The translations under genes and the position numbers were made by a program. From Candidatus Nomurabacteria bacterium (GTDB lineage Bacteria > Patescibacteriota > Minisyncoccia > Phycocordibacterales > UBA918): 64,000 nt of DNA. Of this stretch, positions 5,901 to 59,775 are shown piece by piece. The stretch covers positions 154,773 to 218,772 of the forward strand of contig JACKGJ010000002.1 of the NCBI GenBank assembly GCA_020631995.1, in the 5' to 3' direction. Each line of letters opens with the position of its first letter. The first letter of the stretch is position 1. Under the pieces are notes generated by a model. That model had not been told where the DNA came from. It saw only the letters and a list, made by a program, of their open reading frames with translations, and ran no database searches.

Positions 5901-6681
5901 CCATCGCTCCAGCAGTCTCACGCTCAGTAACTAGACGCTTGTGTAACTCTTCAAGGTTTACATTTTTGAATACTTCAAAAACACTCTCAGCACCAATCTT
6001 TGCTTCAAAAAGTGTTCCGTACTTAATAGAGAATTTATGGAACTTGTTTTCATCCAATACTGCACCTTGTTTGATGGAGTTGATTTCACTTTTAACTTCG
6101 TCTAGTCGCTCCTTGAGTTCAGCTAGGGCCGCTTCATTTTTGAGCTCTTTAGACTTAGTTTTGTACTCGGTTGATAGTTCTGCCATCAGGCGTGAACGCT
6201 CGCTTTCAGCTACTTTAGTGATGATATATCCAGCGAAGTAGATCACCTTCTCGATGTCAGCAGCTGAGATTCCAAGAATAAGGGCAATGCGACTAGGTAC
6301 ACCACGTAGGAACCAGATGTGTGACACTGGTACACAAAGGTCAATGTGACCCATTCGCTCACGGCGCACAATTGCGCGAGTAATTTCTACTCCACACTTT
6401 TCACAAACGATACCCTTATATCGAATACCACGATACTTCTTACAAGAACACTCGTAGTCTTCTACTGGCCCAAAGATTCTCTCGTCGAAGAGACCATGTT
6501 TTTCTGGACGCTGAGTTCGATAGTTAATCGTTTCAGGCTTAGTCACCTCACCATGGGACCATTCGAGAATTTTGTCTGGGCTCGCAAGTTTCAAGCCCAC
6601 CCCAGTGAACTGTGGTGTTGCTCGTCTTGGAGGACGACTCCCGTTTCCTCTATCTCGGTTGTTTGATTCTTTTATTTCCAT
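2989..6681 (-). CDS. rpoC: DNA-directed RNA polymerase subunit beta-prime
   Basis: 1230 aa. Contains the catalytic [12 protein letters not shown] motif and shows typical RpoC sequence throughout. ATG at 6681. Confidence 0.98.
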
Positions 6682-10069: not shown

Positions 10070-10306
10070 CCCAAACTAGCGTATCTGTACTAGTTTCAGA
10101 ATTCCGGCTCGTCACCTTAGATTGTCTAAGGCACCACACAGAGTACTTCAGAAAATATAGTCGTGCGCGCACTCCTTATTTTCTTGGTCGCTCTGTCGCC
10201 AAAACTCTTCCAACCAGCACATCTACATCTAGTTTTGGAAAAGTCTATCGCTCTAAGATTTAGGTGGCTTTAAACCGCAACACAATCACCCCTAAATCGC
10301 AAGTGG
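10070..10306 (-). repeat. GCTAG-box intergenic element, long-hairpin type (copy E)
   Basis: The minus strand aligns with 59641..59775 (+) in three blocks: CCACTTGC; GATGTAGATGTGCTGGTTGGAAGAGTTTTGGCGACAGAGC; and CCTTAGACAATCTAAGGTGACGAGCCGGAATTCTGAAACTAGTACAGATACGCTAGT. A 57-nt nested hairpin is inserted after GACAGAGC. Confidence 0.7.
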
Positions 10307-17352: not shown

Positions 17353-17454
17353 TATCCATATTGTACCGCAATTAGACGGTCTCATTAATGACTGCAGTGT
17401 GTATGAAAACAGCAGCCCATCGGGCCACTATTTTCCTCCTTCTATTCATCTTAC

Positions 17455-17564
17455 TATCGATGTTTGCGCTAGCAAACTTTTAGTAGAAGAGTTGCCGGTG
17501 GGCAACTCCTTAGATAGCAAGAACACCTGGTCCATTTACGCCCGCAGGCGAAATGGTGTTCTTA
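17455..17564 (-). repeat. GCTAG-box intergenic element, core type (copy C)
   Basis: The minus strand reads TAAGAACACCATTT-CGCCTGCGGGCG-TAAATGGACCAGGTGTTCTTGCTATCTAAGGA-GTTGCC-CACC-GGCAAC-...AAAAGTTTGCTAGCGCAAAC. It aligns with copies A and B. It begins on the rnc stop codon. Confidence 0.7.
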
Positions 17565-18254
17565 CCACCCCTTGGTATCAATGGCTTTTTCAGCGGCATC
17601 TTGCTCTGCTTCTTGCTTAGAGCGACCCTGACCTTCTGCTACTTTTTCATCTCGTAGAAATACACCAATAGTGAACATACGATCATGATCAGGGCCTTCT
17701 TGGGAAAGCATTTCATAAGAAGGAGTAATTGAGACCTTTTCTTGAGCTAACTCCTGGAAGCGACTCTTAGCATCTTGCCAAAGTTTCTTTTCTACAATCT
17801 TGTCAGTTTTGTTGAATAGCTGTTCACCAATGAACTTCTTAGCGGCGTCGTAGCCTTGGTCTAGATAAATGGCGCCAATACAAGACTCAAATGCATTCGC
17901 CAATATGTATTGTCTGGCTCTTCCAGTGTCCTTAGCTTCCCCTTTGGACATCAACATAAAATCATTTAGACCCAGCTTTTGAGCAGATTCTGCAAGTGAC
18001 ACAGTATTTACTAAGGCTGCGCGCACAGCTGTTAGTTCCCCCTCTGGCTTCTCTGGATACTTTTTATAAAGATAGTCTGTGACAACAAGTTCTAGTACTG
18101 CGTCGCCAAGAAATTCAAGGCGTTCATTGTGTTCTTGGGTAGCTTCTTTGTGTTCATTTAGGTACGAACGGTGGGTGATGGCAGACAAAAGATAGTTTTT
18201 GTCTATAAATACCACTCCGAGAATGGTTTCTAATTTTGATAGTTCTATTTCCAT
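17562..18254 (-). CDS. rnc: ribonuclease III
   Basis: 230 aa. RNase III signature NERLEFLGDAVL, plus a C-terminal dsRBD. Confidence 0.95.
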   Translation of the reverse strand: MEIELSKLETILGVVFIDKNYLLSAITHRSYLNEHKEATQEHNERLEFLGDAVLELVVTDYLYKKYPEKPEGELTAVRAALVNTVSLAESAQKLGLNDFMLMSKGEAKDTGRARQYILANAFESCIGAIYLDQGYDAAKKFIGEQLFNKTDKIVEKKLWQDAKSRFQELAQEKVSITPSYEMLSQEGPDHDRMFTIGVFLRDEKVAEGQGRSKQEAEQDAAEKAIDTKGW

Positions 18255-18274
18255 ATTCAGTTATGAATTAGAAA

Positions 18275-18327
18275 TTTCGAATTTTGAATCAATTTTAAAA
18301 TTCGAGTTTCGAATTTGATTCAAAATT
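18275..18327. repeat. A+T-rich imperfect palindrome upstream of rnc
   Basis: TTTCGAATTTTGAATCAATTTTAAAATTCGA-GTT-TCGAATTTGATTCAAAATT. The AATTTTGAATCAA and TTGATTCAAAATT arms enclose an inner AAATTCGA/TCGAATTT palindrome. Confidence 0.6.
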
Positions 18328-18387
18328 AAAAATTTAATTTAATAATTTCGTTAGCTTTTATGCTGAATATTCGTTTTGAAAAAAATG

Positions 18388-24268: not shown

Positions 24269-24275
24269 TTGGGGG

Positions 24276-24303
24276 TTGACGTAATAATGCCAAGAGTTAT
24301 TAT
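24276..24303 (+). promoter_or_regulatory. sigma-70-type promoter of the thrS leader
   Basis: TTGACG (24276..24281), 16 nt, TATTAT (24298..24303). Confidence 0.6.
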
Positions 24304-24309
24304 CTAGGT

Positions 24310-24477
24310 ACAGAGATTGCTCCGGCTACCAATCGGAGGCATTGTGCGCCACAGGCCTAATCTGTCTAATTAAGCGCCCTAACACAAGTATTACTTGTAT
24401 GGGAAGCTCGGTGGAACCGCGGTTAAGACCGCCCGAGCAAAAATTCAATGATTGAATTTTTGCTCGGGCGTTTTTTG
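24310..24477 (+). promoter_or_regulatory. T-box riboswitch leader (threonine-specific, compact stem I) with terminator
   Basis: T-box-like sequence GCTCGGTGGAACCGCGG. Antiterminator GCTCGG-UGGAA-..GCGG-UUAAGA-CCGC-CCGAGC, whose 3' arm is shared with the terminator GCCCGAGCAAAAATTCAATGATTGAATTTTTGCTCGGGC+TTTTTT (24431..24477). The candidate specifier is ACC followed by A, in GGCTACCAATCGG. Confidence 0.7.
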
Positions 24478-24480
24478 TAA

Positions 24481-24694
24481 GAACCCATCTCGAATAGAAT
24501 GGCTAGAAATAACGTTCAAAATTCGAGCGAAAAACAAGGTGGACTTCGAAGTGAACTAATGTTCATTGAGAAGGAACCGAAGTTTTGTAGCCGAATTTTG
24601 GATGTTAGCTTCAGCCAAGCTAGTCGTTTTTAGATGGGTGTATTACATCCATCTAAAAACGACTCCAGTTGGCGGTTCTATTTGAGATGGGTTC
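24481..24694 (+). repeat. 214-bp element bounded by 19-nt terminal inverted repeats, inserted between the T-box terminator and thrS
   Basis: Left end GAACCCATCTCGAATAGAA pairs with right end TTCTATTTGAGATGGGTTC. The only difference is a G:U pair on the plus strand. Internally there is a perfect 16-bp hairpin (AGTCGTTTTTAGATGG...CCATCTAAAAACGACT) and two GCTAG boxes. Confidence 0.7.
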
Positions 24695-24714
24695 TATTAA
24701 TTAATTTATAAATT

Positions 24715-26109: not shown

Positions 26110-28233
26110 TTATTTCCAGCTCTGATCCGCGTACTTCGCTACCAGCGCTTCGACTTTTTTTCTGTTTTCCGTGTCAGTCTCTGACATACCTGTTCCTGCT
26201 CCATAAAGAGAGAAACCTAGTACGCTACCCTTCTTCACTACAAGGATGTAGGCGATGAAGAGTGCCCAGAGTGTAAGTACAGCGTAGAACAGGAAGGTAA
26301 GGAATGCTCCAGCCTCAAAACCAGTATATGGCACTTGAGTAAGGGCGATTACTAGAGCTTGGTCGCGCTTTTCGTAGACAGCGATATCATCAACATCGAC
26401 GTCTACCTTACAAGTACGACTTCCTCCATCTTCACCTTCAGCCTTCATTCTAAATTCAGTAGACTGATTGATGATAATATCGATTTCACCGTCGAGGTAC
26501 TTCTTACGCTTAGACGAACTGTAGTCATCAGTATCGAAGATGGTATTGCCACGATCGTCCTTGATTACAATTTCATCAACGTTTTTGGTTTCCCAAGAAA
26601 GGGTTACCTTCTCGCCACGCTTTACACGGTCTCTAGAGATATCAAGTTCACACTTTGGAGACTTCTTATTGTCATCTTCATCCTCAATTTCCACTCGTAC
26701 AGTACAGGTATCAGAACCGTTTGTACCAGTAGCAGTAAGGGTGAAGGTCGTGTCGTCGTTAATTTCTACCTTCTTAGATCCATCAGCAGATACGTTACCA
26801 ATACCCTGGTTGATGCTAACAGAAGTAGCGTTGGTGGTGTCCCATGTAAGGGTTACATCATCACCTTCTTCAACCTCGTCGTCAGAAACACGAAGGTATT
26901 CACAACGAGCAGCTTGAGTATCTGATTCTTTAGTTATTGTAACAGTACAAGAGTCACTACCTGATGTGCCGGTCGCAGTTAAAATAAAAGTAGTATTTGA
27001 GTTAACACGTACGGTCTTTGAACCGTCCATAGAAACTGAACCTACGCCATTATTGATCGATACTGAAGTGGTATTGGTAGTTTCCCAATTTAGAGTCACG
27101 TCAGCTCCTCCGGCTGGTACGGTGGTGCGACTAGCTCTCAAGAAGTCACACTTAGGAGCTTCATCTTCTGGCTCATCTTCAACAGTAACTTTTACAGTAC
27201 ACTTGTCAGTTCCACCATTACTATTCCATACGTCTAACCAAAATGTCTTTGAACCGTCTACGAAGACTGTCTTAGAACCGTTGAGGCTAATGTTTGGAGT
27301 AGTACCATAGTGATTAGACTCATTTGAGCCCCATAGAGTTACTCCGCTAGCGTTAGAAGTACTCCAAGAGAAGGTAACGTTACCTCCACCTGCGGGTACT
27401 TTAGTAGTACTAGCGTTTAGGTAGTTACAAACTGGTGCTGGTACATCGATTGGTGTGTCGACAGTAATAGACACGCTACACTTAGCTGACTGTCCAGCAC
27501 TGTTCCAAACATCCAACCAGACATTTTTAGAACCATTTACGAAGACTGTCTTAGAACCACTGAGACTGATATTAGGAGTAGTACCGTAGTGATTAGACTC
27601 TCCATTTCCCCAGAGTGTAGCACCACTGGCATTAGTTGTGCTCCAAGAGAAGGTAACGTTACCTCCACCTGCGGGTACTTTAGTAGTACTAGCGTTTAGG
27701 TAGTTACAAACTGGTGCTGGTACTTGAACTGGCTGTTCAACACTAACTGATGCAGTACACTTAGCAGTTTGACCTGCATTATTCCATACGTCTAACCAAA
27801 ATGTCTTAGATTCATCTACAAAGACGGTCTTAGAACCACTGAGACTGATATTAGGAGTAGTACCATAATGGTTAGATTCTCCAGCACCCCATAGGGTCAC
27901 TCCACTAGCGTTAGAAGTACTCCAAGAGAAGGTAACATTGCCCCCACCTGCAGGTACTTTAGAAGTACTGACATTAAGGTAACTACAAACTGGTGCTGGT
28001 GTAATAGGATCCAGCGGGCCGTCTCCACCACCAATATCACCGCTAGGAGAATCACCACCGCAACAACCACCACCAAAGTCAGCGTCCCAGGCTTCAGCTG
28101 AAGAAGCTGAAGTACTCAAAGAATCAGCTGACCCGCTTATCTGTGGCAACTGAGGTAATACTACAAACATCATCAATGACAAAGTAGCGATTGATGCAAC
28201 GCCGTAGATAGTAAATTTAATCGTATTGGTCAT
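26110..28233 (-). CDS. membrane-anchored surface protein with six Cys-bounded Ig-like repeats
   Basis: 707 aa. N-terminal signal/TM segment. Three 93-aa near-identical repeats (CNYLNASTTKVPAGGGNVTFSWST...) are followed by three diverged 82-90-aa repeats. The C-terminus has VPYTG, then a 29-aa hydrophobic segment, KK, and a 40-aa tail. Confidence 0.8.
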   Translation of the reverse strand: MTNTIKFTIYGVASIATLSLMMFVVLPQLPQISGSADSLSTSASSAEAWDADFGGGCCGGDSPSGDIGGGDGPLDPITPAPVCSYLNVSTSKVPAGGGNVTFSWSTSNASGVTLWGAGESNHYGTTPNISLSGSKTVFVDESKTFWLDVWNNAGQTAKCTASVSVEQPVQVPAPVCNYLNASTTKVPAGGGNVTFSWSTTNASGATLWGNGESNHYGTTPNISLSGSKTVFVNGSKNVWLDVWNSAGQSAKCSVSITVDTPIDVPAPVCNYLNASTTKVPAGGGNVTFSWSTSNASGVTLWGSNESNHYGTTPNISLNGSKTVFVDGSKTFWLDVWNSNGGTDKCTVKVTVEDEPEDEAPKCDFLRASRTTVPAGGADVTLNWETTNTTSVSINNGVGSVSMDGSKTVRVNSNTTFILTATGTSGSDSCTVTITKESDTQAARCEYLRVSDDEVEEGDDVTLTWDTTNATSVSINQGIGNVSADGSKKVEINDDTTFTLTATGTNGSDTCTVRVEIEDEDDNKKSPKCELDISRDRVKRGEKVTLSWETKNVDEIVIKDDRGNTIFDTDDYSSSKRKKYLDGEIDIIINQSTEFRMKAEGEDGGSRTCKVDVDVDDIAVYEKRDQALVIALTQVPYTGFEAGAFLTFLFYAVLTLWALFIAYILVVKKGSVLGFSLYGAGTGMSETDTENRKKVEALVAKYADQSWK
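27151..27987 (-). repeat. 3 x 279-bp in-frame tandem repeat inside the surface-protein gene
   Basis: CTCCAAGAGAAGGTAAC... recurs at 27362, 27641 and 27920, a period of 279 bp. Long stretches are identical between copies. Confidence 0.9.
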
Positions 28234-29106: not shown

Positions 29107-29277
29107 CCAGATTTACTAGCAATGTCGCGTTCATCCCAGAGGCTCTGCCTCTGGGATGAACGCGACCATTTAAAACAGTATCGCCGGAGGGCGATTCCCT
29201 AGCTAGCAAAAACGCCTGGTTCCGACCGCGTAATGCCTCGGGATTCTATCCCGAGGATAGCGGGGCGGACGTTTTTA
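29107..29277 (-). repeat. GCTAG-box intergenic element, core type with 19-bp terminal hairpin (copy B)
   Basis: The minus strand reads TAAAAACGTCCGCCCCGCTAT-CCTCGGGA-TAGAA-TCCCGAGG-CATTACGCGGTCGGAACCAGGCGTTTTTGCTAGCTAGGGA-ATCGCC-CTCC-GGCGAT-ACTGTTTTAAATG-GTCGCGTTCATCCCAGAGG-CAGAG-CCTCTGGGATGAACGCGAC-ATTGCTAGTAAATCTGG. It begins on the sortase stop codon. Confidence 0.75.
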
Positions 29278-29946
29278 GAGCGCTTTTTTGGATACAAGCA
29301 CTGCTTCTACGATAAAACGGTCTTCTTTAGCCCCAAAAGTATTACAGGTCGCTAAAGTCAGGCGGGCACCATTGCTAGTCGTAGGAATAGATACAGCGCT
29401 AGCCTTAGCCTGATATACCTTATCTACACGATAGGTGTATTCAGTATCAGCGGATTTTAGGGTAATGGTATCTCCCCAAGTCATATTTTGAATACCGTTA
29501 AAGGCCTGGTAATTCTTGTTAAAAACGTTGTTTAAGTAGCTTGAGTGGCCAAGAATAAGCATATTTCCATTCTGGTCATTAAGGTCAGCTGAATCCGGGT
29601 GACGTACGACTCCCTTAAGGAGCGCAGCATCAAGGTCGGGGATAGACCGAGATGTTGGATTTAAAACGCTTACAGTACGGTCTAAGCTCCCTAGAGTGAT
29701 ACTTATAGGTTGTGCACTGCCATTATTATCAAGTAATACAGGAGTTTCCTCTACTTCTTTAGTGAGGGATGTTTCATCATTTTCATTTATCACTGTTTCT
29801 TCACTTTTTACTTCATCTTCTGGAGCTTCTGGCACGAAGTCAATAAAATACAAAAAACCGTAGCCAATCATCATCACAATAAAGAAAACACCCAGAAAAG
29901 CGCTGGCACTAGGTAGAATTTGGTTGAAGAAATATGAGAATTTCAT
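29275..29946 (-). CDS. sortase-family transpeptidase
   Basis: N-terminal TM segment, catalytic His (LILGHSSY), TLATC active-site motif (RLTLATCNTFG) and a downstream Arg (DRFIVEAV). The track start is TTG at 29982; I prefer ATG 29946 (MKFSYFF). Confidence 0.8.
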   Translation of the reverse strand: MKFSYFFNQILPSASAFLGVFFIVMMIGYGFLYFIDFVPEAPEDEVKSEETVINENDETSLTKEVEETPVLLDNNGSAQPISITLGSLDRTVSVLNPTSRSIPDLDAALLKGVVRHPDSADLNDQNGNMLILGHSSYLNNVFNKNYQAFNGIQNMTWGDTITLKSADTEYTYRVDKVYQAKASAVSIPTTSNGARLTLATCNTFGAKEDRFIVEAVLVSKKAL

Positions 29947-30049
29947 TTGTGCACATAATACACGAAATATTGGATTTGTCAATGATTGCTATTGACAAAA
30001 CAATATAAATAGGTATCATTGTCACAAATTCAGCAGATAACTTAATACT

Positions 30050-38493: not shown

Positions 38494-38569
38494 GCCGAGG
38501 TAGCTCAGTTGGTAGAGCAGCCGATTTGTAATCGGCCGGTCGCAGGTTCAAACCCTGTCCTCGGCTCCA
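38494..38569 (+). tRNA. tRNA-Thr (anticodon UGU), CCA encoded
   Basis: Manual cloverleaf: acceptor GCCGAGG/CCTCGGC; D arm GCTC-AGTTGGTA-GAGC; anticodon arm GCCGA-TTTGTAA-TCGGC; variable loop CGGTC; T arm GCAGG-TTCAAAC-CCTGT; discriminator T; CCA. Confidence 0.9.
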
Positions 38570-46050: not shown

Positions 46051-49000
46051 TTATGGAGTAGTTGGAATCGGGTCCTCAGCTGGTGTGGTTGGTTCAGGTT
46101 TCTTAGTTGATGCTTCGGGAGTGGTCACTGTGTCCTTACTAGATTCATCAATTTGGGTATCGTTAGTACTATCTGCCTCAGTTGATTCAGATTCATTAGA
46201 GATAGTCTGACTCTCGTCATCAGTTGTTGCTTCGCTATCATTCTCAGTGTCTGGGGACTCACTAGTGTTCTTTGTTGTGTTATCAGCTTTGTTCGTTTCG
46301 TCTACTATCTCGTCTACAGGCGTACTTATATCATCAGTTTCATCAGCACTTTCTGTGCCCGTGACATCTTCAGTATTTTGAGGTCCTATGTCGTTCTTAG
46401 TGTCTGACGTAGTCTCAGGCACAGGCTCCGATTCTGGATAAACTGCAGGCTCGGTATTTGTTTCGTCAAGAATCTTGAGTACCTGTTCTTCTGAAAGGCA
46501 GGTGTTACCAACACACAGTAATTCAGTATGAATGACAGTGGCAGTCAACTTCTGCACCACAATCTCCACAATTCTAAGCACTCCATCTACAAAGGCCTGA
46601 GCTAGCTCTATCACTCGCTCAAAGAGTGAGTGAGCTGAGAACGGTTCAGTAGAAGAAGCAGTTGATGAAGCGTTCTGGTAGTAGTACGCCATCATAGAGT
46701 CACCAAGGTCTAGGTTAACAAATACTTCAACCGTACCTGGTTCTTCTGCACTAAATGGTGCTAGAGCGTAACCAATGACAGCGTCACCTATCTCTGCTTT
46801 ACGAGCTACTCCAGGAGTACTAGTACCCATAGTGATTAAGTCACCGATAGCTATTACGCCGCCATCAATAGTTACCTTCACTGGTACACGTCCTGCTAGT
46901 GCTATTGGTACCTTTAGTGCTCCTTCATTAGCATTGTCGTCTAGGACGATACCAGGTTTAGTCGCTACGATACCTACTACTCGCTCTCCCGCCATACCGG
47001 TAGCTTTCTTAACGTAGCCAGGACGTTCTGTGTCTAGTGCTACTACGTCACCGGCTTCGAGGTCACTTTCTGCTGTGGCGTACATTTCTGCCAGGTCGGC
47101 TCCACCGGTGTTTTCTGCGACGTATGAGATGTATGCATGGGCGGTGCCGGAGAAGGAGCTTCCTAAATTAGAGTACTCATTTATATCCTGCCCAGTAAAG
47201 CCAACCACAAACATTTTGGTACCGTCAGCATTAAAGGCTAAGTCTTGTGGTTGAGTGTCCTGACTTACTACACTAAAGGAATCGACGAAGGAGGCAGTCG
47301 AAACATCAAAGCCAGTACTAAGATTGTATTTATTGACGTCTTGTCCGCCATAACCTACTAATAACATTTTGGTGCCGTCAGGTGAAAAGGCGAGGCCTTG
47401 TGGTGTAGTATCCTGCGCTGCCACACTAAAGGAATCGACGAAAGAGGCTGTAGATAAGTCAAATCCGGTACCAAGGGTGTATTCGTTGACGTCGTTGCCA
47501 GTTTGACCCAGTATGAACATTTTAGTTCCGTCTGAGTTGAAGGCGATACTCCATGGCTGAGTATCCTGACCTGATACACTAAAGTTACTGGCATAGACAG
47601 CAGTAGAAACATCAAAGCCAGTGCCAAGATTATATATATTGATATCTTGTCCACTGGAGCCAACCACAAACATTTTGGTACCGTCTGTATTGAAGGCGAG
47701 ATCGGTCGGATAAATATCTTGCGCTGTCACACTAAAGGAATCAACATATGAGGCGGTCGAAACATCAAAGCCGGTGCTGAGGGTGTATTCGCTGATGTAA
47801 TCATTGACATTACCCACTACAAACATTTTGGTACCAGTGGGGTTAAAGGTGACGCCTATTGGTTGGGTCTGTTGCCCGGACACACTGAAAGAATCAACGA
47901 AAGAGGCATTTTGGATATCATAACTAGTATCTTCTGCTACTACAGTAATCGAACTATCGGCACTCACTACACGGTAATTTTTGTTACCTGCCACGGTAGT
48001 CATTACGGTTTCACCATCAATAGTTAGGATGAGTTGTCCACCAGTCATAGCAGTCGCATCCAGCACTACTTGCACGGTTGATGTGGCGTCAAATGATGTA
48101 ACTGCATTCCAAGTACTGGTAGCTGTGAAGGTGTGTGAAAGAACACCATCGTCAGCCGAACCTCCAGCAGAGATACCAAGTGATGAGGTAGCTACCCACT
48201 GCAAGCCTGAGCCGGTTGACTGAAGTACCATACCAGCCGAGCCAGCTGAACCAATACTATCGAGCAGTGAACCAGTTAGTGAAAGGCTACCAGAGACAGA
48301 AAGGTTGCCTGCGATCGTAGAAGTAGCGGTCGTAGATGAGGTGGTGAAGTTGTCGAAACTAGCGGTACCTTCTACGGTGAGCTTCGAGGACGGTGTAGTG
48401 GTACCGATACCGATATTGCCCGAGTTGTAGTAGATGTCTGAGCCAGTAGATGTCCATTGTGAAGAGACCTTACTAGCCCATTCTGTAGTACTTGCTATCA
48501 GCGGGATACTGTATCCAGCAGTTAGTGAAGTAGCTCCGGTAGATGAATTGTATGTGAGGCCGGTAGCTGAGTTAGAGAATAGGTTGCGGATGTATGAAGG
48601 AGTGAGGGCGGTGGTTGAGGCAGCGGCTGCGTCCCAAGAAGCACTGTTTGCTGTGACGGTGTTGTATGTGTTGTTCCAGTTGGTTGTGCTGGCTGTGAGT
48701 GGGATGTTGTATCCAGACGTTAAACTAAATACACCAGTTGAAGTAGCGTACGAAAGACCAGTAGCAGACGATGAAAGAGTGTCGCGGGCACGTGCATCAG
48801 TGAAGTATAGATTACCGTTTTCTGTAATGTCTCCAGTGTCTAGTACTACTACGCCGATTTGACCGTTTACAGAATCTACTGCACCCCCTCCGGAAATTCC
48901 CAACGAAGAAGTGGCAATGTTACTCCAAGCAGAACCGGTCCAAACTAACAAATTACCAACAGCCTCAGTCATTGAAGCAACATCTGACAAATCCTCTAGA

Positions 49001-49524
49001 GAAGAGACATTGCTAGTACCACCTCCGCCGCCACTATTACTGGTATCGATATTTTCGATGGAGCGCATTATGGCGTCGACTTGTGCGTCATACTCTTGTC
49101 TAGTGACAAAACGAGAAACATCCACAACCCCATCCTTCACTATCACCTCTTTAATAACCTCACGTTCAAGAGGATAGGTGTTCGAGTAGTACTCATTAAC
49201 GATTGTGGTTGGAGTACTGTTAGTAACCACCTCCATTTGCTTAGTAGTTGTGGAGGAAACTACTTCGGTTTCAGGTTCTTTGCTGGCCGGAGTTATAGCG
49301 TATTCAATCGATTTAGTAATACAGCCATATCCAAACAAGCCTTTAACATCACACCAAAACTCTGACCAAGCGGAAGAGGATACTTGTGCAGCAAGGCTTT
49401 TGTTTAAATTGTTGTAACCATACTTAACAACAGGGGTACTAAAATACACAGCAGAGAAGATAAAAATAACAATCCCTACTAACAAAACACCCAGTATTTT
49501 AAAGCGAAATCCGCCCTGGTTCAT
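46051..49524 (-). CDS. giant membrane-anchored surface protein (1157 aa)
   Basis: N-terminal TM segment. Fibre-like Ser/Thr/Gly-rich region with paired ATGL(S/T)Y...SLT(S/A)GY(N/S)IPL motifs. Five 51-aa propeller-like repeats. A conserved beta-rich domain (GGADLAEMY...GDVVAL...VPIALAGRVPVKV). An acidic Ser/Thr/Asp/Glu-rich tail. Confidence 0.8.
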   Translation of the reverse strand: MNQGGFRFKILGVLLVGIVIFIFSAVYFSTPVVKYGYNNLNKSLAAQVSSSAWSEFWCDVKGLFGYGCITKSIEYAITPASKEPETEVVSSTTTKQMEVVTNSTPTTIVNEYYSNTYPLEREVIKEVIVKDGVVDVSRFVTRQEYDAQVDAIMRSIENIDTSNSGGGGGTSNVSSLEDLSDVASMTEAVGNLLVWTGSAWSNIATSSLGISGGGAVDSVNGQIGVVVLDTGDITENGNLYFTDARARDTLSSSATGLSYATSTGVFSLTSGYNIPLTASTTNWNNTYNTVTANSASWDAAAASTTALTPSYIRNLFSNSATGLTYNSSTGATSLTAGYSIPLIASTTEWASKVSSQWTSTGSDIYYNSGNIGIGTTTPSSKLTVEGTASFDNFTTSSTTATSTIAGNLSVSGSLSLTGSLLDSIGSAGSAGMVLQSTGSGLQWVATSSLGISAGGSADDGVLSHTFTATSTWNAVTSFDATSTVQVVLDATAMTGGQLILTIDGETVMTTVAGNKNYRVVSADSSITVVAEDTSYDIQNASFVDSFSVSGQQTQPIGVTFNPTGTKMFVVGNVNDYISEYTLSTGFDVSTASYVDSFSVTAQDIYPTDLAFNTDGTKMFVVGSSGQDINIYNLGTGFDVSTAVYASNFSVSGQDTQPWSIAFNSDGTKMFILGQTGNDVNEYTLGTGFDLSTASFVDSFSVAAQDTTPQGLAFSPDGTKMLLVGYGGQDVNKYNLSTGFDVSTASFVDSFSVVSQDTQPQDLAFNADGTKMFVVGFTGQDINEYSNLGSSFSGTAHAYISYVAENTGGADLAEMYATAESDLEAGDVVALDTERPGYVKKATGMAGERVVGIVATKPGIVLDDNANEGALKVPIALAGRVPVKVTIDGGVIAIGDLITMGTSTPGVARKAEIGDAVIGYALAPFSAEEPGTVEVFVNLDLGDSMMAYYYQNASSTASSTEPFSAHSLFERVIELAQAFVDGVLRIVEIVVQKLTATVIHTELLCVGNTCLSEEQVLKILDETNTEPAVYPESEPVPETTSDTKNDIGPQNTEDVTGTESADETDDISTPVDEIVDETNKADNTTKNTSESPDTENDSEATTDDESQTISNESESTEADSTNDTQIDESSKDTVTTPEASTKKPEPTTPAEDPIPTTP
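47146..47910 (-). repeat. 5 x 153-bp coding tandem repeat (51-aa units)
   Basis: Repeat unit is ASFVDSFSV.GQDTQP..(L/I)AFN.DGTKMFVVG..GQD(I/V)NEY.L.TGFDVST. Confidence 0.85.
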
Positions 49525-53266: not shown

Positions 53267-54325
53267 TTAACTCTGGTTAGTATCTTGGGTAGGATTAGCA
53301 AGATTTTTTACAACCGCACTAATGTGTTCAGTTAAAGTGTGCACGTATGACGCCTCGTTATCATACCAAGCTAGTACTTTGACCAAGTTGCCATCTACAA
53401 CTTGAGTCATACCAAGGTCAGCAATAGCACCAAACCTAGCACCTATGATGTCGGAAGAAACTAGAGGCTCGTTAGTAACCGCAAATACTTTTTTCCAGCG
53501 GTCTGATTGCGCAGCTTTGGTCAAAGCCTGATTTACTTCCTCTACGGAGGTCTCGCGGGATGCAATGAAAGTAATATCCACAATAGAGCCAACCGCTACA
53601 GGGACGCGGATTGAGATGCCATCAAACTTCCCTACTAAGTCAGGGTAGGCTAGCGTGGTAGCAATAGCCGCACCTGTAGTAGACGGAATTATGTTTTGTG
53701 CAGCCGCTCTACCGTCACGTAGATTCTTTTTACTAGGACCGTCAACTAGAGATTGTGAGGCCGTGTAGGCGTGTACCGTATTTAAGATTGCCTTATCGAT
53801 ACCGATGGTCTCCTTTAAGATTCCAACTAAAGGCGAGGCAGCGTTAGTGGTGCAGGAAGCATTTGAAGTAATTTCGCAGGTCTTAAAAGCTTCTTCATTG
53901 GCTCCAATCAGTACAGTAGCTCCCTTTATGTCAGATTTGGTAGGGTCATCTTTTACAGGAGCGGTGATAACAACCCTTTTTGCGCCGGCCGTGAGATGTG
54001 CCTTGGCTTTCTCATAACTATTGAAGACACCAGTCGATTCCACAACCAAATCAATGTCTAGTGATTTCCAAGGCAATACAGACGGATCTTTTTCGTGAGA
54101 AAGAGCAAGCTTTCTTCCGTTAACCGTCAGTCCATCTCCATTAACCTCAACAGGAAATGGAGCGTGACCATACATAGTGTCGTATTTTAAAAGGTAGGCA
54201 AGGTTTTCCGGTTGTCCCAAATCATTAATAGCGACTACTTCATAGTCGTCTCTACCTTCCGACATCCTAAAAAACGTACGTCCAATTCTACCAAAACCAT
54301 TGATAGCTACTTTTAGCTTTGCCAT
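53267..54325 (-). CDS. gap: glyceraldehyde-3-phosphate dehydrogenase (type I)
   Basis: VAINGFGRIGR and the SNASCTTN active site. 352 aa. Confidence 0.95.
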   Translation of the reverse strand: MAKLKVAINGFGRIGRTFFRMSEGRDDYEVVAINDLGQPENLAYLLKYDTMYGHAPFPVEVNGDGLTVNGRKLALSHEKDPSVLPWKSLDIDLVVESTGVFNSYEKAKAHLTAGAKRVVITAPVKDDPTKSDIKGATVLIGANEEAFKTCEITSNASCTTNAASPLVGILKETIGIDKAILNTVHAYTASQSLVDGPSKKNLRDGRAAAQNIIPSTTGAAIATTLAYPDLVGKFDGISIRVPVAVGSIVDITFIASRETSVEEVNQALTKAAQSDRWKKVFAVTNEPLVSSDIIGARFGAIADLGMTQVVDGNLVKVLAWYDNEASYVHTLTEHISAVVKNLANPTQDTNQS

Positions 54326-54344: not shown

Positions 54345-54537
54345 CCCGAGCAAATCAGGTGTTGATAGTAAAAACGTCGCTCGTCCTATCTCCGCCGCAA
54401 GCGGACGGAGCATTAGGCGAGCGAACCAGGTGATTTTGCTAGATAGGGTGTCGGCCTCCGCCGACCTTGGTTATAAAAGTCACATTCATCCTTGCGACAA
54501 TGCCGTCGAGACTGACTTCGACATTGCTAGTGAAACT
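54345..54537 (+). repeat. GCTAG-box intergenic element, core type (copy A), antisense to flanking genes
   Basis: CCCGAGCAAATCAGG...GTAAAAACGTCGCTCGTCCTAT-CTCCGCCGC-AA-GCGGACGGAG-CATTAGGCGAGCGAACCAGGTGATTTTGCTAGATAGGGT-GTCGGC-CTCC-GCCGAC-CTTGGTTATAAAAGTCACATTCATCC...GACATTGCTAGTGAAAC. It aligns end to end with copy B. Confidence 0.75.
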
Positions 54538-54544
54538 TTAATCT

Positions 54545-55273
54545 TTATTTATATGAAGGTACCTTTGGCTGACTATGTTCAATTTCTATTTCTTCGAATC
54601 GTTGTATTTGTGTAACCAAGATTGAGCCTTGCTTAACTGACTCTAAGACCGCTAAGAATCCAACGATGTACGTATGTTTCTCAGTGGAATCTGCAATCAA
54701 TTCACTAAACTTTAAGCGAAGCTGACTCTCTATCCGCTTATGTAGTCTGTCTATCATTTCTTCCAGAGAGACAACTTTCCGCACCTGCACCTTTGGCTTA
54801 ACTATCTTGATAGGTAAGTCAGATACGACCCTATACATCGCTTCGTGGAGTGCTGCTTTTGAACAAAATTCGTCTGGAAGGAATAGTGGTTTTCGTTCTG
54901 GCACATACTGACGCTCATGCATTACTCTCTGTCCAAAAGTTTCCGCTACGGTTGCGGAAGCCACACGATAGATTTGGTACAGCTTAAGTCGCTCTTCTAG
55001 CTCCTCGATGCTACTTTCCTCTTCTTCAGACAATTCCAAAACAGGCAGAAGAGATTTGGATTTAATAAGAAGCAGTGTGGCCGCTAGAGCTACGAAGTTT
55101 GCAGTACCAGGGAGTGACATCTCCTGCATTTTTGATACCTCTGCCATATACTCGTCGGTCACTGTTGCGAGCGAAAAGTCATTAATCAAAAGCTTACGCC
55201 TTTCAACCAAGTCGATTAGGAGTTCGAGTGGCCCTTCAAAAATAGGGGTCTTAATGGAGAAATTGGTGACCAT
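54545..55273 (-). CDS. scpA: segregation and condensation protein A (kleisin ScpA)
   Basis: PIFEGPLELLIDLVERRKLLINDFSLATVTDEYM is the typical ScpA N-terminus. 242 aa. Confidence 0.85.
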   Translation of the reverse strand: MVTNFSIKTPIFEGPLELLIDLVERRKLLINDFSLATVTDEYMAEVSKMQEMSLPGTANFVALAATLLLIKSKSLLPVLELSEEEESSIEELEERLKLYQIYRVASATVAETFGQRVMHERQYVPERKPLFLPDEFCSKAALHEAMYRVVSDLPIKIVKPKVQVRKVVSLEEMIDRLHKRIESQLRLKFSELIADSTEKHTYIVGFLAVLESVKQGSILVTQIQRFEEIEIEHSQPKVPSYK

Positions 55274-59602: not shown

Positions 59603-59640
59603 AGGGAAATACTAGCAGAAATACGCTAAAACACGAAATA

Positions 59641-59775
59641 CCACTTGCTAGATTTTGTTTAAATGGATGCAGATGTACTTAGTTGGAGGAATTTTGGCGA
59701 CAGAGCCTTAGGTAAGCTAAGGTGACAAGCTAAAATTCTGAAACTAAGTACAAATGCGACATTTTAGCGAAATCT
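59641..59775 (+). repeat. GCTAG-box intergenic element, long-hairpin type (copy D), antisense to flanking genes
   Basis: CCACTTGCTAGATTTTGTTTAAATG-[GCAGATGTACTTAGTT GGAGGAATTTTGGC GACAGAG CCTTAG-GTAAG-CTAAGG TGACAA GCTAAAATTCT GA AACTAAGTACAAATGC]-GACATTTTAGCGAAATCT. The flanks match copy B and the interior matches copy E. Confidence 0.75.

Follow-up and report, generated by a model that had tools for sequence, protein, structure and literature searches.

The bridge RNA of IS110 elements carries internal sequence complementary to the joined ends of the element and to its target, and donor and target share a short core. IS608 recognises both its cleavage sites and its target through pairing with an internal tetranucleotide, and its insertion is strand-specific and generates no duplication (PMC3201880). 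The small RNA gene ssr9 was found to hitch-hike on an IS110 transposase in the form of minicircles (PMC12288879). In the 64-kb stretch of DNA analysed here (the window), three look-alike stretches are copies of one undescribed mobile DNA element of 111–212 bases that carries no gene and has a conserved multi-helix fold. Like ssr9 of ISPpu9 (IS110), it is a small structured non-coding module that would be spread by an enzyme encoded elsewhere (PMC12288879).

Copies of the element in the window and beyond

The homology of the three stretches, asserted in the earlier note, was confirmed by their shared core GRACCAGGYGNTYTTGCTA, which occurs 3 times against 0.23 expected by chance, and by nhmmer and a covariance model, which agree on the same three window copies and detect none further (Table 1). 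The interval given there for copy 1, 54345–54537, stood as to homology but not as to limits, as it takes in 24 nt too many of left flank and 7 nt too many of right flank. A wider GCTAG-box family with one member per 8–9 kb had also been proposed and is not upheld, as the 64 kb hold 3 copies, the heptamer TTGCTAG alone is not enriched (11 found, 10.35 expected) and was rejected as a family marker, and the intergenic repeats at 10080–10229 and 59666–59758 belong to a different family. The second TTGCTAG box attributed to the copy at 17.5 kb is really its short P3 hairpin, GTTTGC-TAGC-GCAAAC.

The 5' TAA of copy 2 (29277–29275) is the stop codon of a sortase gene and that of copy 3 (17564–17562) is the stop codon of rnc, whereas copy 1 lies antisense between the genes for ScpA and GAPDH, an arrangement that had been read correctly before. 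A pilin-like gene is located downstream of copy 3. When both strands of the element were read, no conserved short ORF or type I toxin was found, and the SD-like AAGGAG of the element has no properly spaced start codon.

Table 1. Positions of the element copies, their parts and the adjoining genes in the window
Feature	Position	Strand	Detail or basis
Copy 1, long type	54369..54530	+	162 nt, TAA to CTAG
Stem A, 5' arm (AAAAACGTC)	54370..54378	+	partner 54429–54437
H1, variable hairpin domain	54379..54423	+	outer helix GCTCG/CGAGC, inner hairpin CTCCGCCGC..GCGGACGGAG
Unpaired bulge (G)RACCA, conserved	54424..54428	+	alignment of 14 copies
Stem A, 3' arm (GGTGATTTT), first half of splint	54429..54437	+	covariation, RNAalifold
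Stem B, 5' arm GCTAGA (consensus GCTAGC), second half of splint	54438..54443	+	covariation, RNAalifold
P2, 6-bp hairpin GTCGGC/GCCGAC, CTCC loop	54450..54465	+	covariation
Linker, conserved AAAA(G) at its end	54466..54478	+	alignments
P3, variable hairpin, imperfect in copy 1	54479..54522	+	covariation
3' box ATTGCTAG	54523..54530	+	junction mapped against empty sites
Stem B, 3' arm, also the 3' terminus of the element	54526..54530	+
Target-derived T-R-R triplet TGA, outside the element	54531..54533	+	same TGA after GATAG, empty site of 96% relative
GAPDH gene	53267..54325	-
ScpA gene	54545..55273	-
Copy 2, long type	29116..29277	-	162 nt
P3 of copy 2	29124..29166		perfect 20-bp hairpin
Sortase gene	29275..29982
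Copy 3, short type	17454..17564	-	111 nt
3' box of copy 3 (ATCGATAG)	17461..17454	-
rnc	17562..18254

A search for copies elsewhere, suggested in the earlier note, identified about eleven more in related Patescibacteria genomes and metagenomes (~14 in all), and the element family is confined to a narrow group of Paceibacteria-type Patescibacteria. Copy number is low, with 3 copies in about 74 kb of the window strain and exact core matches at 3 places across the entire UBA6201 assembly, and a covariance model of the short type detected no extra copies over 267 kb. The presence of so few copies per genome is unlike a burst-type selfish repeat. The element repeats break short-read assemblies of the host organisms, and they can be used as strain-level markers.

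In agreement with the earlier remark that the conserved cores of RNase P, tmRNA, SRP, 6S and the common riboswitches are not seen, the window returned only a tRNA-Thr from Rfam (riboswitches, ribozymes, HEARO/omega RNAs, IS605-orfB motifs and sRNAs included) at the gathering threshold. When three regions were scanned permissively (E<=5 or E<=10), all scores stayed at chance level, 10–21 bits against cut-offs of 37–140. BLAST searches of plasmids and phages gave no match, and a pattern scan of viral contigs gave 0 matches.

Junctions of filled and empty sites

Orthologous intergenic regions were compared, as had been recommended. Each of the four sites examined carries the element in some genomes and is cleanly unoccupied in close relatives, and the junctions are exact. 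What enters is exactly TAA...YTAG, and it comes to lie between N, most often G, and a T-R-R triplet. When unoccupied, the four sites have the sequences N^TGA, N^TAA, N^TAA and N^TAG (where ^ marks the junction), and three of these four triplets serve as true stop codons. All copies (14 of 14) have T-R-R as their right flank, and the left flanking base is G in 13 of 14.

The ScpA/GAPDH spacer is 48–59 nt long and empty in five relatives (L011, L012, L013, L014 and L022/L023), whose GAPDH proteins are 89–95% identical to that of the window, and the 162-nt element is found there in the window strain only. This site reads GTTGATAG^TGAGTTT when empty and GTTGATAG^TAAAAACG...ATTGCTAG^TGAAACT when filled, and copy 1 is the youngest insertion. 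The sortase site (empty GCGCTC^TAAATATAGG; filled GCGCTC^TAAAAACG...GCTAG^TAAATCTGG) is also filled in the window only; both the 96% relative L015 and Kaiserbacteria L020 have it empty. At the rnc site, the window and the 96% relatives (L015-17, L007) carry a copy, in the relatives a 212-nt variant, and the 92% relative L019 and L020 carry none (empty relatives 92% and 84%). A fourth site, at UPF0391, is filled in UBA6201 and L006 and empty in L027, reading N^TAG when empty and carrying TAA on the left and TAG on the right when filled. The nested presence and absence across relatives fits successive gains.

At two informative sites the filled and the empty form have the same right triplet (TGA or TAG), but on the left the filled form always has the element's TAA, and the left TAA was therefore not copied from the target. 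No target-site duplication was seen in the comparisons of empty and filled sites, and no copy has terminal inverted repeats, the 5' end TAARAACRYC being unlike the reverse complements of the 3' end (CTAGCAATG / CTATCGATG). Since the gene is now terminated by the 5' TAA that the element brings, with the original stop displaced to the 3' side, the protein is unchanged and the upstream gene remains intact. Entry exactly before a stop triplet, with a replacement TAA, is a way to insert without damage to a gene, and to our knowledge no described bacterial repeat family lands before a stop triplet and brings its own TAA.

Tandem copies that share a junction are present in L004 (twice) and L001. Whatever role the element has, its exact TAA...YTAG junction and its tandem arrays call for a dedicated mechanism of insertion.

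Fold of the element

An internal strand, GGYGUUYUU-GCUAGC, pairs with the element's 5' end in stem A and with the 3' end in stem B, and both termini are therefore held side by side on an internal splint. These two long-range helices, from the internal core to both termini, were absent from the earlier description. The splint strand flanks the variable hairpin H1, the 6-bp hairpin P2 with its CNCC loop and the variable hairpin P3, and its tetranucleotide UUGC has complementarity to the G^URR target as well. That the splint pairs with both ends and matches the target suggests a programmable, pairing-based choice of site like that of IS608 guides or bridge RNAs.

Across the 14 copies, 27 pairs were counted, of which 14 covary (both sides change), and 90.5% of cells are paired, compared with 34–50% for slid-partner controls; none of 500 shuffles reached the observed pairing and covariation values. 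RNAalifold independently recovered stems A, B, P2 and P3. Fold z-scores were -5.7 (17454..17564), -8.5 (29116..29277) and -3.6. G-U pairs exceed A-C mismatches by 35 to 8, which points to one folded strand.

In stem A, a helix also predicted by RNAalifold, both sides change in 5 of 9 pairs, and the paired fraction of cells is 97.6%. The 5' arm of stem B pairs with the 3' terminal GCTAG, with covariation between CTAGC/GCTAG, CTATC/GATAG and CTGG/CCAG. The compensatory changes previously noted in the 6-bp hairpin with its CWCC loop are real, and 5 of 9 P2 pairs change on both sides when a 3-bp extension is included; in other copies the P2 loop holds a nested module of ~101 nt. It had likewise been recognised that the upstream hairpin is swapped wholesale while its enclosing helix is kept, and the H1 region forms a hairpin of 8–19 bp in all copies but one, despite differing sequences. 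In the bulge (RACCA), A-C-C is invariant and the final base is A in 12 of 14 copies. In other copies P3 has a length of 6 to 20 bp; pairing is complete (100% of cells) in its outer 3 pairs, 2 of which covary, and the distance from its end to the terminal YTAG is 8 nt in all copies. A pseudoknot between UARGG and the CNCC loop was considered and rejected, as the two co-vary by subfamily (TAGGG with CUCC, TAAGG with CACC) and not as Watson-Crick pairs.

Mobility, possible host function and known systems

The earlier choice of a functional RNA or a structured mobile repeat, in preference to a simple terminator, is supported by the filled and empty sites, the covariation and the constraint on the sequence. 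The reading that we consider probable is that these are small, gene-less, asymmetric mobile elements that insert at stop triplets and whose folded single strand is acted on by an enzyme encoded elsewhere. No transposase, recombinase or reverse transcriptase was found among ~50 window genes checked (Pfam, NCBIfam), and the neighbours of copies in L001–L004, scanned in the same way, are housekeeping genes with no mobiliser, thus the enzyme is hypothetical. A XerC/D-like recombinase encoded 2.3 kb from the L001 copy was considered as the mobiliser and judged coincidental.

On this reading, the folded single strand (ssDNA, possibly RNA) would be the substrate of a nuclease or recombinase encoded elsewhere, which would cut and join at G^T while the splint recognises both ends and the target, and the closest logic may be the guide and cleavage-site scheme of HUH single-strand transposases. 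Each inserted copy would recreate ...TAG^TAA at its 3' junction and so could attract further copies, which would explain the tandem arrays. The left flank does not covary with the splint, so recognition of the target by pairing rests on 4 nt (G^URR with UUGC).

A bolder version, which we regard as doubtful, is that the element is self-guided, one splint both holding the termini and reading G^URR by wobble, such that the element homes to stop codons and replaces them with TAA. UUGC would then pair with GUAA, GUAG or GUGA, the folded strand could be RNA or ssDNA, and the reaction might depend on an enzyme class that has so far had no link to such elements, or RNA might catalyse part of it. If this is true, insertion in ultra-small CPR genomes would follow a gene-neutral strategy of homing to stop codons.

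Sequence is better conserved in orthologous copies than in neighbouring genes (97% versus 85%), indicating an element that is both mobile and constrained. Between genomes, identity is 97.3% for the copy at the rnc site, with its 3 changes all in loops or the linker, whereas it is 84.9% for the rnc coding sequence, 71% for the downstream spacer and 69% for the pilin gene. The L002/L006 pair is 94.3% identical with an invariant core, and its flanks are 81–87% identical. Such strong conservation of fixed copies is unexpected for a purely selfish element, and it suggests that at least some copies also serve the host, probably within the transcript of the upstream gene. Patescibacteria (CPR) genomes are about 1 Mb in size and are regarded as having little mobile DNA or regulatory RNA. 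The element is a structured one in this group that demonstrably still moves between close strains and is also kept under selection.

The same conservation, with changes limited to loops and variable hairpins, bears on the leading alternative, that the element is primarily a host-functional cis-acting RNA module in 3'-UTRs or between cistrons, co-transcribed with the upstream gene, whose spread is rare and secondary. It could then act as a protector of transcript ends, as a site of processing (by RNase III on the long helices, for instance), as a terminator or insulator working in both directions, or as a regulator of translation through the SD-like UAAGGAG and the anti-SD-like CCUCC/CACC loop. 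The low copy number per genome and the sense orientation relative to adjacent genes at 8 of 9 independent sites would agree with this, as would terminator-like features in several copies (a U-rich tract after P2, and UUUU after the reverse complement of P3), which are clearest in L005. A U-rich tract comes after P2 in L005, w29278 and the short types and is missing there in L002, L006 and w54368, and on the sense strand no U-tract ever comes after P3. However, neither the U-tracts nor the SD-like features are kept in all copies, and in L002 and L006 a separate canonical terminator follows the element. The flanking genes (rnc, sortase, UPF0391, gltX, valS, sigma factor and GAPDH) share no function, one copy is antisense to both neighbours, and the insertion mechanism demanded by the junctions and arrays would still be needed. 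We hold a primarily cis-acting role in the host to be unlikely.

Helitrons end in CTRR, have a hairpin whose distance from the 3' end is 10–12 nt, and integrate between A and T with no duplication. The 3' terminus CTAG, the hairpin about 8 nt upstream of it, and a start with T before a host T, with neither duplication nor inverted repeats, recall a non-autonomous rolling-circle element (Helitron/IS91-like, HUH-Y2). This origin is improbable, as the likeness rests on few bases, the left host base is G rather than A, the 5' end is TAA rather than TC, and Helitrons proper are eukaryotic. No Rep/helicase gene was seen among the genes checked in the window and at copy loci, and the elaborate conserved fold with a splint pairing to both ends is not a Helitron feature.

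An independent family of trans-acting sRNA genes (sibling sRNAs), each with its own promoter, would account for the conserved fold, for several copies per genome and for a C-rich CNCC loop that could pair with Shine-Dalgarno sequences. However, elements start on stop codons or abut other copies, their upstream flanks are unrelated, and a scan in and before the copies found no conserved promoter, TTGCTA-16-TAAGAT occurring in short types only and below the scan threshold. As presence and absence with exact junctions fit insertion rather than gene duplication, such a family is highly improbable.

The element resembles a MITE in being short (111–212 nt) and free of ORFs, with ~14 copies and four sites both filled and empty, but it has neither terminal inverted repeats nor a target-site duplication. 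A classical DDE-transposase MITE duplicating a TAA (TNA) target, IS5/IS1031- or PIF/Harbinger-like, might be suspected from the TAA on both sides of 11 of 14 copies, but can be set aside given the lack of inverted repeats in every copy and the informative sites, where TAA on the left and the empty-site TGA or TAG on the right contradict duplication.

The mobile element acted on in trans, the reading preferred here, was also compared with described families of small repeats. Like REP/BIME, ERIC, Correia, RUP and BOX sequences, it is short, gene-less, intergenic, probably co-transcribed with its neighbours, foldable and polymorphic between strains, and here as there some copies supply or overlap gene ends. 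However, those repeats have a palindromic form or inverted repeats at their borders, mostly duplicate TA and number tens to hundreds of copies, whereas the element is asymmetric, with an RNA-like fold of several covarying helices, the exact N^TRR rule, its own stop and few copies per genome. Unlike the RAYT-mobilised REPs and REPINs, it is not a high-copy palindrome of ~20–35 nt with a conserved GTAG head and inverted doublets.

Integron attC sites likewise lie at gene 3' ends, often overlapping the stop, keep structure over sequence and act as a single folded strand. They differ in having R''/R' boxes (RYYYAAC/GTTRRRY) and one bulged hairpin, whereas the element has five helices and no such boxes, its stem A arms being AARAACRYC/GGYGTTYTT (AAAGTTACC/GGTAACTTT in one copy). 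The element also has no cassette ORF or integrase context, and one insertion is the bare 162-nt element in a spacer.

The element has in common with IS110 bridge RNAs an internal sequence that matches its joined ends and the target, and a short core found in both donor and target. In IS110 bridge RNAs, two internal loops read both DNA strands, whereas the element uses one continuous strand to pair with its own two ends on the same strand, and its complementarity to the joined ends takes the form of intramolecular helices rather than internal loops. No IS110-like DEDD recombinase was seen among the genes checked at element loci.

The IS200/IS605 group (PATEs, IS608) has in common with the element the lack of inverted terminal repeats and target duplication and a strand-specific fold, and may share insertion beside a fixed 3–4-nt sequence; the T-R-R/G context of the element is fixed. 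The group differs in that no Y1 transposase (TnpA) or TnpB was found near the element, in the 64-kb window or flanking loci, and in that its two ends are alike, whereas H1 and P3 of the element differ from one another and from copy to copy. The strand that the G-U pairs favour has the target triplet 3' of the element, whereas on the complementary strand the variable triplet lies 5' and the constant element end opposite, and the flank logic of IS200/IS605 fits only this complementary strand. The conserved central hairpin and bulge of the element have no counterpart in IS608. As in IS608, however, the element has subterminal hairpins, of which one has its foot 10 nt from an end, like that at the right end of IS608, and the ends and target match an internal tetranucleotide through pairing (PMC3201880). 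In the IS200/IS605 family a guide tetranucleotide lies 5' of each hairpin foot, while the guide of the element is a central strand of 14–15 nt that pairs with both termini at once.

Occupied and empty insertion sites

Syntenic loci of relatives were retrieved through homologues of GAPDH, DnaE and UPF0391. Protein neighbours assign the window to the Paceibacteria/Parcubacteria portion of the Patescibacteria. Its DnaE is identical to an NCBI protein listed under 'Candidatus Nomurabacteria bacterium'; the next relatives by DnaE are metagenome bins at 96% and 92% identity and Kaiserbacteria at 84%, and the GAPDH of MAG UBA6201 is 89% identical to that in the window. Comparison of filled and empty states shows that the element was gained site-specifically at N^TRR, i.e. 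between a base, usually G, and a TAA, TAG or TGA triplet.

Filled and empty states of the four mapped sites (caret, junction; L-handles denote loci from other genomes or metagenomes)
Site	Filled in	Empty in	Empty junction	Filled junction
ScpA-GAPDH spacer	window strain only (219-nt spacer)	five relatives (48-59 nt)	GTTGATAG^TGAGTTT	GTTGATAG^TAAAAACG...ATTGCTAG^TGAAACT
Sortase	window only	96% relative (L015), Kaiserbacteria (L020)	GCGCTC^TAAATAT	GCGCTC^TAAAAACG...GCTAG^TAAATCT
rnc	window and 96% relatives	92% relative (L019), 84% relative (L020)	GGTTGG^TAAACT	GGGTGG^TAAGAAC...GATAG^TAAGAT
UPF0391	UBA6201 (L002), L006	L027	GGTATA^TAGGAC	AATATG^TAAAAACG...GCTAG^TAGAAC

The comparison defines the inserted unit as TAA...YTAG, the right-hand triplet (TGA, TAA, TAA and TAG, respectively) being that of the target, and target-site duplications are absent from the mapped sites. 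The element has no terminal inverted repeats. The right flank is T-R-R in all 14 copies, and the base to the left is G in 13 of the 14. In three of the four mapped cases, the target is the stop codon in use by a gene that runs in the same direction as the element, and the gene at such a site ends on the TAA of the element with its exact length unchanged; a stop-codon location was found at about four of nine independent sites. As each insertion remakes ...TAG^TAA at the 3' junction, a resident copy offers a further target at its own 3' end, leading to the head-to-tail pairs seen in L004 (twice) and in the UBA6201 locus L001. Across about 200 kb of syntenic sequence from the relatives, no further copies were found outside the listed sites.

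Distribution of the element and other features of the window

The members in the window, identified using nhmmer profiles and a covariance model, are exactly three copies, and neither method detected weaker ones. The homology of these copies proposed in the earlier note was borne out. A core, GRACCAGGYGNTYTTGCTA, has three matches in the window, where shuffling predicts 0.23; on its own, the heptamer TTGCTAG shows no enrichment there (11 found, 10.35 expected). The gene contexts it described also hold for all three copies, the first bases of the 17.5-kb and 29.2-kb copies being the TAA of rnc and of the sortase gene, respectively, and the 54.4-kb copy being antisense to the genes on either side of it, those for ScpA and GAPDH. 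An Rfam search of the copies returned nothing meaningful at E<=10, and the only match in the window at the gathering threshold was a tRNA-Thr. Searches of plasmids, phages and viral contigs with the element gave no match.

When one genome per GTDB species was scanned for the exact pattern, the element was found only in UBA6201, in three places, where DNA similarity to the window (80-90%) is confined to the element and none is detectable in the flanks. Five further loci came from a JGI metagenome scan, and profile searches of the UBA6201 and JGI loci added divergent, tandem and enlarged copies, the alignment set comprising about 14 copies from the window and other loci.

A second, unrelated intergenic repeat family, undetected by the profile or covariance model of the element, is probably one of the other 'GCTAG-box' types of the earlier note. 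A 10-bp inverted repeat (GTACTTAGTT/AACTAAGTAC) marks both ends of its 59.7-kb copy. UBA6201 has this copy in the orthologous spacer between the histidine-kinase and tRNA-synthetase genes (83% identity), but the 45-65 nt spacers of L013 and L014 lack it; the copy thus also looks mobile. Two Logan short-read contigs of the window strain (L009 and L026) end inside this family, indicating that such repeats break up the assemblies of this organism.

Elsewhere in the window, two large ORFs with tandem coding repeats and no Pfam match may encode surface proteins. Several nested near-perfect inverted repeats occur between dnaE and the gene for a class II aminoacyl-tRNA synthetase, in a spacer with no Rfam match, T-box included, and an AT-rich palindrome (32-nt arms, 81% complementary, no inter-arm spacer) lies between nusB and rnc. 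A 296-aa ORF, if read from its mechanical start, overlaps the tRNA-Thr(UGU) and has only weak endonuclease-like matches (Phage_endo_I, E=0.0036; Bax1, E=0.0025); its true start is probably further downstream.

Coordinates of element copies, second-family repeats and other features
Feature	Sequence	Coordinates
Element, ScpA/GAPDH site	window	54369-54530 (+)
Element, sortase site	window	29116-29277 (-)
Element, rnc site	window	17454-17564 (-)
Module-bearing copy	L007 (= L015)	2180-2387 (= 6325-6536)
Module-bearing copy	L004	3382-3582
Module-bearing copy	L008	2243-2431
Orthologous loci, different element types	L004	1700-1890, 3229-3585
Orthologous loci, different element types	L008	706-900, 2215-2441
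Truncated copy	L001	3500-3590
UBA6201 copy	L001	3591-3728
Second family	window	10080-10229 (+), 59666-59758 (-)
Second family	L011	4667-4824
Second family	L004	13547-13680
Second-family region with contig ends	window	59603-59773
1157-aa ORF (153-nt units)	window	46051-49524 (47179-47907)
707-aa ORF (279-nt units)	window	26110-28233 (27050-27886)
446-nt dnaE spacer	window	24269-24714
Inverted repeats in this spacer	window	24425-24475, 24622-24664, 24480-24499 with 24676-24695
nusB-rnc palindrome	window	18272-18335
tRNA-Thr(UGU)	window	38494-38569
296-aa ORF	window	38509-39399

Fold and composite copies

Every copy starts with TAA, which is overlapped by the 5' arm of stem A (A-A-R-A-A-C-R-Y-C), and this is followed by a variable hairpin of 8-19 bp (H1), a conserved unpaired (G)RACCA and the 3' arm of stem A (GGYGUUYUU). 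The latter directly abuts the 5' arm of stem B (GCUAGC), after which come UARGG, a 6-bp hairpin with a CNCC loop (P2), a linker usually ending in AAAAG, a variable hairpin of 6-20 bp (P3), AUU, and the 3' arm of stem B (GCUAG), which is the 3' end of the element. As the internal strand GGYGUUYUU-GCUAGC is continuous and pairs with both ends, it complements the sequence made by placing the 5' end of the element after its 3' end; in the predicted fold, the two termini are adjacent along this splint.

RNAalifold, working from the MAFFT alignment alone, returned stems A and B, P2 and P3. Over 14 copies, 90.5% of cells are paired, compared with 34-50% when partners are slid by 1-3 columns, and two-sided changes occur in 14 of 27 pairs, the observed values being reached in none of 500 shuffles. 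Stem A occurs as AAGAACACC/GGTGTTCTT, AAAAACGTC/GGCGTTTTT, AAAAACACC/GGTGTTTTT and AAAGTTACC/GGTAACTTT, and stem B as CTAGC/GCTAG, CTATC/GATAG and CTGG/CCAG. Single-sequence folds are far more stable than those of shuffles (z-scores of -5.7, -8.5 and -3.6). G-U pairs outnumber A-C mismatches (35 versus 8, a count arising partly from two conserved, less certain pairs), suggesting that the strand as written folds better. In the 17.5-kb copy, the short P3 hairpin had been read as a 'second TTGCTAG box'; the true 3' box there is ATCGATAG.

In three copies, the P2 loop accepts a nested module of about 101 nt, which has several hairpins of its own and no Rfam match, giving variants of 200-212 nt. 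The module end in one copy, UCACCUCC, is identical to the 3' end of 16S rRNA.

At orthologous loci, the related strains represented by L004 and L008 carry different element types as well as chimeric or truncated copies, for example a 13-nt 3' remnant, ACATTGCTAGTAA, followed by a long-type copy. This pattern suggests that copies have inserted into one another and have recombined. A truncated copy in L001, with AACATCTAG^TAA and hairpins resembling P2 (ATCGGC-TCC-GCCGAT) and P3, is directly upstream of a UBA6201 copy; about 60 nt downstream, the motif AACATCTAGTAA appears again on its own.

Constraint, alternative readings and related systems

The rnc-site copies of the window and the 96% relative differ, a loop insertion apart, at 3 of 111 positions, all in loops or the linker; identities around them are 84.9% (rnc CDS), 71% (downstream spacer) and 69% (pilin gene). 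The orthologous copies in L002 and L006 are 94.3% identical, compared with 81-87% in the flanks, and their central core is fully invariant. As a purely selfish fixed copy should decay neutrally, the conserved copies are either under host selection or were replaced very recently, though shared private variants oppose the latter.

This constraint, the low copy number and a sense orientation relative to neighbouring genes at eight of nine independent sites fit a rival reading, that of a 3'-UTR or intercistronic RNA serving the host as a stabiliser, processing site, insulator/terminator or SD/anti-SD regulator, as do terminator-like P2+U or rc(P3)+U arrangements in some copies. However, the neighbouring genes share no common function, the terminator- and SD-type features are not conserved across copies, and the junction rule needs insertion machinery anyway. 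Autonomous sRNA genes are unlikely, given the lack of a conserved promoter and the position of the copies, each of which starts on a stop codon or adjoins another copy. A classical MITE duplicating TAA is contradicted by two informative junctions and the absence of inverted repeats.

The element is an undescribed, lineage-restricted, structured mobile element that replaces stop triplets on insertion and has a self-splinting fold; the finding is more interesting than a repeat. We place it among the small non-autonomous bacterial elements, outside the MITE, REP, PATE and attC families, as defining features of each were looked for and not found.

The folded single strand would be recognised by an enzyme encoded elsewhere; the roughly 50 window genes examined are all housekeeping and include no transposase, recombinase or reverse transcriptase. 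With wobble pairs allowed, the UUGC of the splint could pair with any of GUAA, GUAG and GUGA, which would fit the targets observed as well as the A-to-G variants.

The closest logic appears to be that of IS608, in which a tetranucleotide within the element recognises the cleavage sites and the target by base pairing, on one strand and without duplication (PMC3201880). Unlike in the IS200/IS605 family, no TnpA was seen in the window or in the flanking loci, its end hairpins differ from each other, and the 'target on 5' side' rule holds only on the strand opposite to the G-U-favoured one. Helitrons have a CTRR 3' end after a hairpin and insert before a host T. The 3' CTAG of the element, its preceding hairpin and its insertion before a host T are similar, a likeness that rests on few bases. 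The element is also reminiscent of the small non-coding modules carried on transposase as circles (PMC12288879).
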